From: Candidatus Poribacteria bacterium
Lineage (GTDB): Bacteria > Poribacteria > WGA-4E > PCPOR2b
Reading direction: 5' to 3'
Assembly: GCA_963665285.1 (NCBI GenBank)
Contig: OY762266.1
Location: 4,960,001 to 5,024,000, forward strand
Length of the DNA: 64,000 bases
How positions within the stretch are numbered: position 1 is the stretch's first letter; each line of letters opens with the position of its first letter. The notes under the pieces were generated by a model, which was not told the origin of the DNA, made no database searches, and saw only the letters and a program-made list of their open reading frames with translations. Position numbers and translations under genes: made by a program. Of this stretch, positions 28,336-31,209 are shown one piece after another.

Positions 28336-28840
28336 AGTCTCCCCGATGCTGAAATAGGTAAATCATCAACATTCCGGCACCGATACAAACGGCAACATCG
28401 GCAACGTTGAAAGTGGGCCACCAGAAACCGGGCAGTCGAAATTGAATAAAATCTGTGACTTCTCCCAAGCGAACACGGTCAATAAAGTTACCAAGTGCAC
28501 CCCCAAGCAGAAAACTGAGCGCAATCTTCGTCCACAAACTATCGCGGAACTGTCGGTAGTAGTAGGCAATGAAACCAATCGCAACAATTGAGATAATAAC
28601 TAACAATACGCTCTGCCCCGGCATCAGCCCAAACGCAGCACCGTCATTCGTGTCATGGCGTAGGTTGAGTATCCCCGGAATTATCACATGTTGACCGTGG
28701 CGTGGAATATTTTGTTGAATCAATGACTTAGTGAACTGATCTACCAATAACGCAGGCAAGGTAACACCAAATATAGGTAAAATCAATTTTAGTATGTTTC
28801 TCTGCATTGGGAATATCCTTTCCTCTAGCGGTTCCTTCAA
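28307..28840 (-). CDS. lspA: Lipoprotein signal peptidase II
   Basis: DQFTK, NDGAAFG, GGALGNFIDR and FNVAD motifs; start may be MQRNIL. Confidence 0.95.
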   Translation of the reverse strand: MKEPLEERIFPMQRNILKLILPIFGVTLPALLVDQFTKSLIQQNIPRHGQHVIIPGILNLRHDTNDGAAFGLMPGQSVLLVIISIVAIGFIAYYYRQFRDSLWTKIALSFLLGGALGNFIDRVRLGEVTDFIQFRLPGFWWPTFNVADVAVCIGAGMLMIYLFQHRGDYDEAKQIEN

Positions 28841-31209
28841 AGCATATCTGCATCAGCAAAGCAAGGAAAATTAGCATGGGAAATCCAATTTTTCAAAAAG
28901 ATGCTCGACAATTCAGACTCATCTTGGCTTTGGGTGTCCTCCGAAGGAGAAGGAGTATCCACCCACATTCGGATTGAAGCGTAGGTTTGTTCGGAGAAAA
29001 AAGGAATGATTGGTGCAAACCGCTGTACCAAGACATACAAAATCCCTAATAGCATTGTTTGACAAGATTGTTTTTCTAGCACTGTTTCCGGCGCATTGAA
29101 CCAATCATCTACGAACTGTTGAAGATCCGATTCACAGAAGTCTCTCAAAAGACACCACGCTTGATAATAGTCGCGTTGCTGGTAGGCGAAATCTACAGAT
29201 TGCAGTACGCTAGCAGTGGTGGACAACTCTTGTGTATCCGGCATCATCATCAGCTCTAGCCGGGGTTCATCTGGATCAAGGGTAAAATCTTCAAGATGAC
29301 TTAATATCACGGCACAAAGTTCTTGAAGGGCACTGTATTCTTGCTGACACTGTTCGAGATGCGTCTCAATTGATGACGGGTCTAAATTGGATTGGATGCA
29401 GAACAGGCGCAGCACATCCTTTGGATATTCTTCCATCCAACTTTGGTTGACATCAACCGATTGGACATTTGAACGACCCCCTGTCAAATCCACATTCAAC
29501 GGCTCCACATCGGAGATAGCAATTGAAGTCAAAACGAACTGAGCGAACCATTTCTGAAATTGATTCGAGTAAAAGAAGTAAACATTAACTGGATCTATCT
29601 CATTTCCCTTAGTTCCAAAATTGTTAATTGTGTTGAGAAGAACTGCGAACCGTCCATCAAGGGTTGTGAATTCTTTCCGAAACTCCTTTCCATCACAGTT
29701 AGGACATTGGGTATTCGGAGGCAACAGATCCTCAGTATTCAACTTAAACCAACTATCGGTGCCGCGACGACTCACCAAAGTACGGATGGCTTTGATGATC
29801 CGGGTATCAGAAAGTTCTCGTCCACATTTTTGGCACTGAAAGAGAGGAATCGGAGTCCCCCAACCTCTGTGACGTGAAACTGGTGGAGGTGGGAGCTCCT
29901 GAATCGTCTGTTGTATCCAATCTTTATCGTTAGGATTATAGTATGCCAAATGTTCATCTGAACAAAGTACCCGTTCCCTCAATTGATTAGTGTCCAAGGA
30001 GAAGATCCATTGTTGAACTGAACGAAACAACACTGGCATATCGCAACGCAAACAGTGAGGCTGATGTATATCCTCAGATCCTGCTGATATTAGATAGCCC
30101 CGTTTTTCCAATTCGAAGGCAATGAATTTTCCGGCATCGGAAATCTCAAGACCACAAAACTGCTCGGCATCCTCCGTCAAACGTCCAGCATCATCAATAA
30201 CCGATGTAATCGGCAGCTGTAGGATTTGAGCAATTTGATAATCATCGGGGCAGTGCCCCGGGGTGAGCGATCTAACTCCGGTCAGTGGTTGAGGTGTTGT
30301 TCCTTCGTCCAACGCATCGCCTAGCTCAGAAATATCTGGAATAACAACGACCTGAAGGTCCTTGCCGAGAAACGGATGGGCGCAAAAGCAACCCGTCAGC
30401 ACATCAACCGGACAGGTTTGCAATCGATTTATATTTGCTTGATGATCCGGCGAAAAGCAAGCTGAGAGATCACTCTCAGTGAGGATAAGGATTTCACCAT
30501 CTAGCTCAACAATCCAATATTCGCTGCTTTCCTGCACCCCAAGGGCGATGCTCCCAGCAAGATACCATAGATCTTGAATCCACGCTAACAGGTAAACGTC
30601 CTCGCCAAACTCTTCTAAACCGACGCTGACAGGAAATTTGACGTACCCAGAATACGCCGGGAACGGGTGATTTTTCATCTCATCCACATCTAGTATGGTA
30701 TTACATTTCGGACACCAAGCTCCCAATTTCTCATCCTTATTCAAATACCCTAACTCCTGCAACGTACTGAAAGCATTGATAATTTTCGCTTCATCGCGTG
30801 AATCCAGAGTTTTGCCCTTCTTCCAATCTCCAAAAATCCCACTCGATCGCAGTTGGTCTTGCTGGTGGTCAACCTCACGCTGGAACTCACGCCGACACTG
30901 CCGGCGAAATCGGATTGCATCAAAGGTGCCATCTTTATGCTCCCGACTCAACGCCTTTGTTTCAACAGTAGGAGTATAATAATCCCAATGCGGTACATAC
31001 TCTACACCCATTCCCTGCATCATGTTAGATTTCAGAAAAACGTCTTGGCAAATCTTGCCTTTAAGCATATCCAACTTCAAATGATGGGTAGCTGCAGGCA
31101 TTTCGCGAAGAATGTAGGGTGTCGATGTCGCTCGTTGGATTAGTTGAGCGTAAATATCAATCTCATCCCATAATTTTAGAATTTTTTCTTCAGTCAGCAT
31201 TTTGGACAA
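28837..31209 (-). CDS. Isoleucyl-tRNA synthetase-like protein with degenerate catalytic motifs
   Basis: Colinear with IleRS (YVPHWD, GIFGDW, WCPKC, PGHCPDDY, SRHRGWGTPIP, DVLRLF) and directly upstream of lspA, but HIGH and KMSKS are absent. Confidence 0.8.
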   Translation of the reverse strand: MSKMLTEEKILKLWDEIDIYAQLIQRATSTPYILREMPAATHHLKLDMLKGKICQDVFLKSNMMQGMGVEYVPHWDYYTPTVETKALSREHKDGTFDAIRFRRQCRREFQREVDHQQDQLRSSGIFGDWKKGKTLDSRDEAKIINAFSTLQELGYLNKDEKLGAWCPKCNTILDVDEMKNHPFPAYSGYVKFPVSVGLEEFGEDVYLLAWIQDLWYLAGSIALGVQESSEYWIVELDGEILILTESDLSACFSPDHQANINRLQTCPVDVLTGCFCAHPFLGKDLQVVVIPDISELGDALDEGTTPQPLTGVRSLTPGHCPDDYQIAQILQLPITSVIDDAGRLTEDAEQFCGLEISDAGKFIAFELEKRGYLISAGSEDIHQPHCLRCDMPVLFRSVQQWIFSLDTNQLRERVLCSDEHLAYYNPNDKDWIQQTIQELPPPPVSRHRGWGTPIPLFQCQKCGRELSDTRIIKAIRTLVSRRGTDSWFKLNTEDLLPPNTQCPNCDGKEFRKEFTTLDGRFAVLLNTINNFGTKGNEIDPVNVYFFYSNQFQKWFAQFVLTSIAISDVEPLNVDLTGGRSNVQSVDVNQSWMEEYPKDVLRLFCIQSNLDPSSIETHLEQCQQEYSALQELCAVILSHLEDFTLDPDEPRLELMMMPDTQELSTTASVLQSVDFAYQQRDYYQAWCLLRDFCESDLQQFVDDWFNAPETVLEKQSCQTMLLGILYVLVQRFAPIIPFFSEQTYASIRMWVDTPSPSEDTQSQDESELSSIFLKNWISHANFPCFADADML

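Follow-up and report, generated by a model that had tools for sequence, protein, structure and literature searches.

Why should a bacterium retain, in the conserved place of ileS, a complete frame for an isoleucyl-tRNA synthetase (IleRS) whose catalytic motifs have been replaced? The question is raised by a 64,000-nucleotide stretch of DNA from Candidatus Poribacteria bacterium, a member of a sponge-associated bacterial group (GenBank assembly GCA_963665285.1, contig OY762266.1, positions 4,960,001 to 5,024,000 of the forward strand; hereafter the window), whose source genome is a single contig and 99% complete. The gene in question is referred to here as ileS*:

28837..31209, minus strand: ileS*, encoding a putatively catalytically dead type 1 IleRS (IleRS1); 790 amino acids (aa) from TTG, 787 aa from ATG at 31200.

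A preliminary description of this locus had proposed a dead IleRS paralog with a scaffold, tRNA-binding, or regulatory role, the working ileS being encoded elsewhere. We conclude that ileS* very probably encodes a pseudoenzyme maintained by selection; that this pseudoenzyme is zinc-stabilized and acts through protein binding is the reading we prefer, with a probability of roughly 0.55.

The 790-aa open reading frame that had been reported as uninterrupted at the ileS-lspA locus contains no internal stop codon and lies among the expected neighbors, and its database product (P0002) is the 787-aa form. In phmmer comparisons ileS* is colinear with IleRS1, the nearest solved relative being that of P. 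megaterium (PDB 8c9e; E 7e-61, residues 7-759), and its match to solved IleRS2 is weaker (E 2e-29). The likeness to IleRS is not a chance one, because ileS* scores 113 bits against Pfam PF00133 and 277 bits against TIGR00392 (ileS), the latter under the cut-off of 621; the anticodon-binding domain is matched as well. The C-terminal zinc finger zf-FPG_IleRS gave no match in ileS*, and the stretch after the APxxP helix is about 59 residues long, against about 175 in a full-length basal copy, which agrees with the short C-terminal domain noted earlier.

The HIGH and KMSKS motifs correspond to two segments of the gene:

31066..31104, minus strand: degenerate GPP..HIGH segment, residues 36-48; across the family only P38 is retained.
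29434..29484, minus strand: what is left of the KMSKS loop (residues 576-592), without the motif.

When ileS* is aligned with active enzymes, its KMSKS loop proves to be replaced and shortened, as the reported absence of KMSKS implied, and each replacement listed in the preliminary description falls at the aligned motif position: that of GPPYANG..HIGH, of GWDCHGLP by HWDYYTPT, of the editing motif WTTTPWT by WIQDLWY, of DWCISRQR by PPPVSRHR, of LDVWFDSG by LDGRFAVL, and of EGSDQHRGWF by FYSNQFQKWF. The 75 loci read yielded 71 frames of at least 700 aa, four shorter loci being dropped, and removal of one IleRS2 (G154; G and L numbers label genomes and loci, f and g numbers families and genera) left 70 full-length dead copies, which were compared with 81 IleRS1 proteins called active by motif pattern only. 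The motif loss, whose sharing among orthologs had been suggested as a check, is common to all of them: HIGH, GWDxHG, WTTxPW, GTGxVHxAP, DxWF, and DQxRGW were each found in 0/70 dead copies and in 70-78 of the 81 comparison sequences, and a KMSKS-like pattern, searched for irrespective of position, occurred in two dead copies, outside the aligned loop. The G154 match, considered as an ileS* copy, was rejected when it turned out to be IleRS2; two family f6 matches considered as IleRS2 were rejected as separate 746-aa frames, and G070 was confirmed to carry ileS* beside lspA.

Among the columns fixed in active IleRS1, 33 of 133 survive in the dead copies. Conservation was read from a panel of 41 diverse dead copies (27 genome loci and 14 database proteins), with residue roles and domain boundaries, including the placing of P38 and W554 in the pocket, presumed by us. 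P38 and W554 are kept in 100% and 88% of this panel, and the other pocket residues in far fewer copies (D76 29%, Q550 17%, W520 2%); in the anticodon bundle, residues invariant in active IleRS1 persist in 12-34%, and the editing Asp position is kept in 54%, family f1 being among those that retain it. The C-terminal zinc finger is present in full-length basal copies (e.g., G041) and lost in later ones. As judged from these alignments, the residues for ATP binding, the isoleucine pocket, editing, and anticodon recognition were lost once, early in the phylum, with frame and fold preserved.

What, then, charges tRNA with isoleucine? The same genome encodes an IleRS2 (G000:C1:2254241-2257630, a 1129-codon frame) in which GVHH, WTTTPWT, and AMHKS are present and the editing motif is intact, and which scores 692 bits against TIGR00392, over the cut-off; ileS* is thus not the sole ileS, as had been anticipated. 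From its motifs, IleRS2 is predicted to be the sole intact ileS copy and to perform isoleucine charging. GXHH is a natural, active IleRS2 motif conferring mupirocin hyper-resistance, and its introduction into IleRS1 abolishes activity, according to the accessible part of 10.1101/2023.01.31.526100. Across the phylum, 47 of the 51 IleRS2 loci carry GXHH and a KMSKS-like motif; two of the others gave no KMSKS pattern match, and two carry TIAH in place of HIGH. The latter belong to the basal families f8 and f9 (L045/G043 and L051/G042) and have KMSKS intact; TIAH is not among the HXGH, GXHH, and AXHH forms described in the accessible parts of the literature on IleRS2 motifs. IleRS2 of family f1 (L075-L094) is about 1120 aa long and carries GPITA..MGVHH and xMHKS, and most f3 enzymes are similar in length; outside f1 (L043-L053, L120-L139) the enzyme has about 1050 aa and KMSKS. 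The presence of two sequence types of IleRS2 in the phylum suggests a second replacement.

The loss of these motifs also bears on the idea that ileS* performs new, non-adenylating chemistry, or retains residual activity, through the Rossmann cleft or the zinc sites. SbzA, an IleRS homolog with transferase activity, provides a precedent (PMC9437257, accessible part), and the N-terminal half of ileS* is well constrained. We regard this idea as improbable: the HXGH-to-GXHH swap alone abolishes IleRS1 activity in the study cited above, the cleft residues vary among Poribacteria families with no convergent new motif, and the neighbors at the locus are housekeeping genes only.

ileS* occurs across most of the phylum. 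The dead-family profile matches 154 of the 176 phylum genomes at E<=1e-75, and fragments at contig edges, next to lspA or yggT, bring in G156, G042, and G151, giving 157/176. The full-length matches listed have open frames of at least 735 codons, at identities down to about 30%, and the Poribacteria dead copies form one clade in a quick tree of 53 rows (Shimodaira-Hasegawa-like approximate likelihood-ratio support 100). No intact copy came to light in 151 genomes when an intact IleRS1 served as the query; the highest-scoring match (481 bits, 32%) is itself a dead full-length copy, which an intact ortholog would presumably have outscored. The term paralog in the preliminary description needs correction: ileS* is a displaced ancestral IleRS1 ortholog at its old locus and not a duplicate, and the phenomenon is phylum-wide.

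Is the gene maintained or decaying? Ratios of nonsynonymous to synonymous substitution rates (dN/dS) were calculated by the pairwise Nei-Gojobori method with our own script, from pairs that are not independent, and are given unweighted / with a transition weight of 3. In genus g1 (17 of 20 genomes, 136 pairs; G015, G016, and G019 were omitted owing to split or missing genes), the median for ileS* is 0.21/0.30, against 0.05/0.07 for IleRS2, 0.08/0.10 for proC, 0.11/0.16 for lspA, and 0.21/0.29 for a neighboring hypothetical gene. The medians are 0.16/0.22 in g13 (10 of 65 genomes) and 0.20/0.31 in g7 (10 of 40 genomes; near saturation, with 15 and 44 of 45 pairs usable), IleRS2 giving 0.06-0.09 in both genera, and the highest value among all pairs scored is <=0.38. 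Since dN/dS lies at 0.16-0.31 in three genera, ileS* is not decaying; purifying selection on it is clear, though relaxed. Constraint is uneven along the g1 protein: expressed as domain dN over gene dS, it is strongest in the zinc-knuckle region 446-515 (0.11), the N-terminal half (0.14), and the CP1 domain (0.15-0.19), and weakest in the anticodon bundle (0.30) and the tail (0.44).

The dN/dS test proposed in the preliminary description thus revealed intact, selected frames, and the frameshifted or neutrally evolving orthologs that would mark a decaying pseudogene were not seen. A slowly decaying relic, retained just for cis effects on lspA expression, would account for the relaxed dN/dS, the stepwise C-terminal shortening, and the full loss of the gene in at least two lineages. 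It is largely refuted by the long open frames, by the upper limit on dN/dS, by the appearance of new invariant residues, and by lspA itself, which probably has a ribosome-binding site of its own and is still present where ileS* has been cleanly deleted. An intact frame, purifying selection, and a working enzyme elsewhere, the marks of a pseudoenzyme, are all found for ileS*.

What the pseudoenzyme might do was approached through its predicted structure. An AlphaFold2 model built from a 46-row alignment of the dead family only (predicted local distance difference test 83.6, predicted template modeling score 0.81) places IleRS1 structures at the top of a Foldseek search (template modeling score 0.68-0.70), so the comparison that had been suggested indicates a retained IleRS1 fold, i.e., a class Ia fold with CP1 and an anticodon bundle, nearer type 1 than type 2. 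Its parts are as follows:

30058..30651, minus strand: fold of the CP1 editing domain (approximately residues 187-384), which no longer has the Thr-rich motif.
30604..30636, minus strand: family-specific motif FPxxxG(L/F)ExxG, residues 192-202, in a CP1 hairpin loop; candidate new interface.
30703..30714, minus strand: CxxC 166/169, conserved in 100% and 95% of the 41 copies.
30043..30054, minus strand: CxxC 386/389, conserved in 100% and 95% of the 41 copies.
29665..29874, minus strand: second zinc-knuckle region, residues 446-515, with CxxC 459/462 and 502/505; the most constrained part.
28960..29289, minus strand: anticodon-binding helical bundle, about residues 641-750; fold retained, recognition residues lost, no zinc finger after it.

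The four CxxC knuckles reported previously (C166/169, C386/389, C459/462, and C502/505) are indeed present; the first two pairs probably form one zinc site, the four cysteines of the second knuckle are conserved in 100% of the panel, and all eight in 95-100%. The FPxxxG(L/F)ExxG motif is found in 68/70 full-length dead copies and 0/81 active IleRS1, and in 0/16 dead IleRS1 of other lineages; G197, E199, and G202 are invariant in the panel and occur in <=11% of active enzymes. In the model, the motif lies in a short turn of helix that separates two strands of CP1. R138 is retained in 93% of the panel.

The tRNA-binding role put forward in the preliminary description finds no support here, because the anticodon-reading residues and the zinc finger are lost and the anticodon-binding domain is among the least constrained. 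A tRNA-binding or trans-editing factor, comparable to halobacterial LeuRS2 or Sulfolobaceae LeuRS-I, would fit the retention of the full multidomain fold, the conserved basic residues K60, R102, R138, R396, R476, and R601, the editing Asp of family f1, and the zinc finger of basal copies. It is nevertheless unlikely, given the fast-evolving anticodon bundle, the isoelectric point of 4.6 of the window protein, the intact editing motifs of IleRS2, and the presence of TilS in 5/5 genomes without ileS*, where it shows no co-loss. The CP1 Thr-rich motif combined with the catalytic Asp, which a trans-editing factor would need, is not found in ileS*: the former is absent from all 70 copies and the latter from nearly half of the panel.

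In the mechanism we favor, the old IleRS1, displaced by IleRS2 and stripped of its catalytic, editing, and anticodon residues, would have become a non-catalytic, zinc-stabilized scaffold. This scaffold may bind another protein via the N-terminal half, the CP1 domain, and the second of the zinc knuckles, the FPxxxG(L/F)ExxG loop being probably the contact used, and the binding may tune a non-essential process; the best, weak candidate would be a regulatory connection with isoleucine synthesis. The scaffold or regulatory function proposed originally may be the right one, and a link to isoleucine metabolism is doubtful.

Several observations weigh against this reading. ileS* was not found in 19 of 176 genomes, namely genus g5 (four genomes, each one contig), family f3 (11), G162, and G155, G159, and G154, the last three being 61-76% complete. 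In 5/5 genomes examined from this set (two g5, three f3), yggS-proC-yggT and lspA-def-fmt are contiguous, and tblastn at these five loci recovered nothing better than E 0.03 as a remnant; at least two clean deletions therefore took place, and ileS* is dispensable in those two lineages. Constraint is relaxed, dN/dS being 2-5 times that of IleRS2; many of the retained residues resemble the fold core of active enzymes, as expected of folding rather than of a binding surface; and the exposure of the FPxxxG(L/F)ExxG loop is deduced from predicted secondary structure. Transcription receives weak support: metatranscriptome contigs cover parts of ileS* in 4/4 runs from three studies (four compared of 18 listed, two of them labeled sponge metagenome), and one RNA-library contig spans lspA to proC, DNA carry-over being possible in both cases; RNA depth gave no ranking of genes. 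A CP1 homodimer prediction (two copies, residues 184-386) scored 0.00, which is evidence neither way. Finally, co-loss tests of candidate genes (13 genomes with ileS*, 11 without) named no partner: the glutamate/leucine dehydrogenase family shows no co-loss (10/11 without, 10/13 with ileS*), and the IlvA regulatory domain occurs in 0/24 of these genomes. Citramalate synthase persists in 9/11 f3 genomes that lack ileS*.

Citramalate synthase (TIGR00977), which we take to be the entry to isoleucine synthesis, was found in 165 of the 176 genomes. All six one- or two-contig genomes in which it was missed (the four of g5, G038, and G029) also lack ileS*; the five misses in fragmented or incomplete genomes are four with ileS* (G016, G172, G157, and G146) and one with a fragment of it (G151). 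Threonine-dehydratase-like genes were found in 0/4 g5 genomes, which retain leuA, hisG, and trpA (4/4 each) and ilvC (G023 only). This pattern fits a HisZ-like sensor, in which a remodeled pocket would bind isoleucine, or a metabolite related to it, and an enzyme such as citramalate synthase would be controlled allosterically; the retention of P38 and W554, and the dead IleRS1 of other phyla that retain the pocket longer and are in some cases fused to a dehydrogenase, point the same way. The pocket is mostly lost in Poribacteria, however, the co-loss amounts to about two independent events, citramalate synthase carries its own regulatory domain, and threonine-dehydratase-like genes are also absent from ileS*-bearing genomes (G030, G033, G115, G045, and G041) and from G070. 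Neither a retained pocket nor obligate co-occurrence with an enzyme, as seen in HisZ, is found for ileS*, and we consider such a sensor unlikely, if somewhat less so than a tRNA-related role; the link to isoleucine biosynthesis by co-loss is a weak lead. As a separate observation, the queries used recovered no citramalate synthase and no threonine-dehydratase-like gene from g5 (G023, G044, G049, and G065), which makes isoleucine auxotrophy or another route to 2-oxobutanoate possible there.

In a search of representatives, IleRS1 proteins lacking HIGH and KMSKS were also found in Armatimonadota, Candidatus Wallbacteria, Myxococcales, and Bacillota. They form two groups outside the Poribacteria clade, in a tree that long branches may distort, and retain the pocket motifs at GWD, DxW, Q, and W in 69-94%. 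Four such proteins (P0147, P0220, P0221, and P0269), from Acidobacteriota and Candidatus Wallbacteria, are fused to a Glu/Leu/Phe/Val dehydrogenase, with HIGH and KMSKS absent and pocket motifs retained; the dehydrogenase domain is leucine-dehydrogenase-like. An IleRS2-like gene lies two or three genes downstream of the fusion in L141 and L142.

L140:1521-5576, L141:6001-10335, and L142:5986-10356: dehydrogenase-fused dead IleRS1 in three Acidobacteriota records.

A more speculative reading, which we consider rather unlikely, is that an unrecognized second job of IleRS1, probably the signaling of isoleucine or branched-chain amino acids to a metabolic enzyme, alone keeps the gene after takeover by IleRS2, with Poribacteria as the most advanced, phylum-wide case. 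If so, the process has been repeated in Poribacteria, Armatimonadota, Myxococcales, Bacillota, and the dehydrogenase fusions of Acidobacteriota and Wallbacteria, and synthetase-derived sensors would be widespread.

The surroundings of ileS* in the window follow the order yggS-proC-yggT-ileS*-lspA:

28307..28807, minus strand: lspA (signal peptidase II), with a probable ATG start at 28807 and its own purine-rich, ribosome-binding-like site.
31280..31543, minus strand: yggT, upstream neighbor of ileS*.
31568..32383, minus strand: proC, conserved upstream neighbor.
32413..33129, minus strand: yggS-like gene (a name we presume) with an Ala_racemase_N domain.
27832..28335, minus strand: conserved hypothetical gene of 167 aa after lspA, retained at ileS*-deleted loci.

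lspA could alternatively start at a TTG (28840) that overlaps the stop codon of ileS*. lspA is present at 47/48 ileS* loci with flanks, and the wider gene order is common to families f1, f2, f4, f5, and f7. Since we take the yggS-proC-yggT-ileS-lspA cluster to be the ancestral home of ileS, the position is uninformative on a new function. The 167-aa gene has no Pfam match, a signal-peptide-like start, and a dN/dS of about 0.2-0.3, and occurs in most of the phylum; in G023 a small unrelated open reading frame of about 100-120 aa lies between yggT and lspA (L095:5074-5439). No tRNA genes were found in the window and no Rfam families at gathering score in four ileS* loci, and promoter-like (11 vs 8.7 expected) and terminator-like sites (4 vs 5.2 expected) showed nothing beyond chance. 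Elsewhere in the genome, ValRS, LeuRS, MetRS, and CysRS are encoded, and the tRNA set is ordinary (49 in total, with one Ile-GAT and three CAT genes). MetRS (G000:C1:5921182-5923113; HAGH/ALSKT) and ValRS (3772581-3775229; HIGH/KQSKS) have variant signature loops, which were read as ordinary variation, and a tilS-like gene (G000:C1:3570938-3571969) directly follows a tRNA-Leu and two CAT-anticodon tRNA genes.

Retention by a whole phylum of a dead IleRS1 of about 800 residues under selection sets a non-catalytic function apart from aminoacylation and opens it to experiment, and the natural deletion lineages serve as controls, with a defined candidate interface available. Such proteins are hidden by the database labels "isoleucyl-tRNA synthetase" and "class I tRNA ligase", and their function, if ancestral, could extend to bacteria that retain an active IleRS1. 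Non-catalytic synthetase descendants are an already known kind of protein; of the phylum-wide dead IleRS1 we found no description in the open-access literature, although supplementary tables of IleRS phylogenies could include such proteins. The accessible part of the review PMC9437257 lists for IleRS only IleRS2 and SbzA, and that of 10.64898/2026.02.03.703510 does not mention Poribacteria.

Compared with known systems, ileS* resembles bacterial IleRS1 (TIGR00392; PDB 8c9e; S. aureus 1ffy) in fold, domain order, and place beside lspA, and differs in the loss of catalytic, editing, and anticodon motifs, in the missing C-terminal zinc finger of most copies, and in its score below the cut-off. 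In Bacillaceae, to which the accessible part of 10.1101/2022.02.09.479832 describes the IleRS1-IleRS2 pair as confined, other bacteria using one type, both types likewise occur in one genome with ileS1 at a conserved locus; both are active there, whereas in Poribacteria IleRS1 is predicted to be dead and IleRS2 to be the sole intact copy. The remaining parallels are drawn from the accessible part of PMC9437257. LeuRS-I of Sulfolobaceae and LeuRS2 of Halobacteria are also full-length class Ia proteins retained with little or no aminoacylation, but they bind tRNA, and LeuRS-I makes the adenylate, whereas ileS* is bacterial and has neither the ATP motifs nor the anticodon residues. SbzA shares with ileS* its descent from IleRS and a role outside translation, yet it is an active transferase of antibiotic biosynthesis, in contrast to a gene at a housekeeping locus. 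HisZ and SLIMP have class II folds, known partners, and no homology to ileS*; as non-catalytic synthetase descendants serving as regulatory or partner subunits, they illustrate the way in which ileS* likely works.

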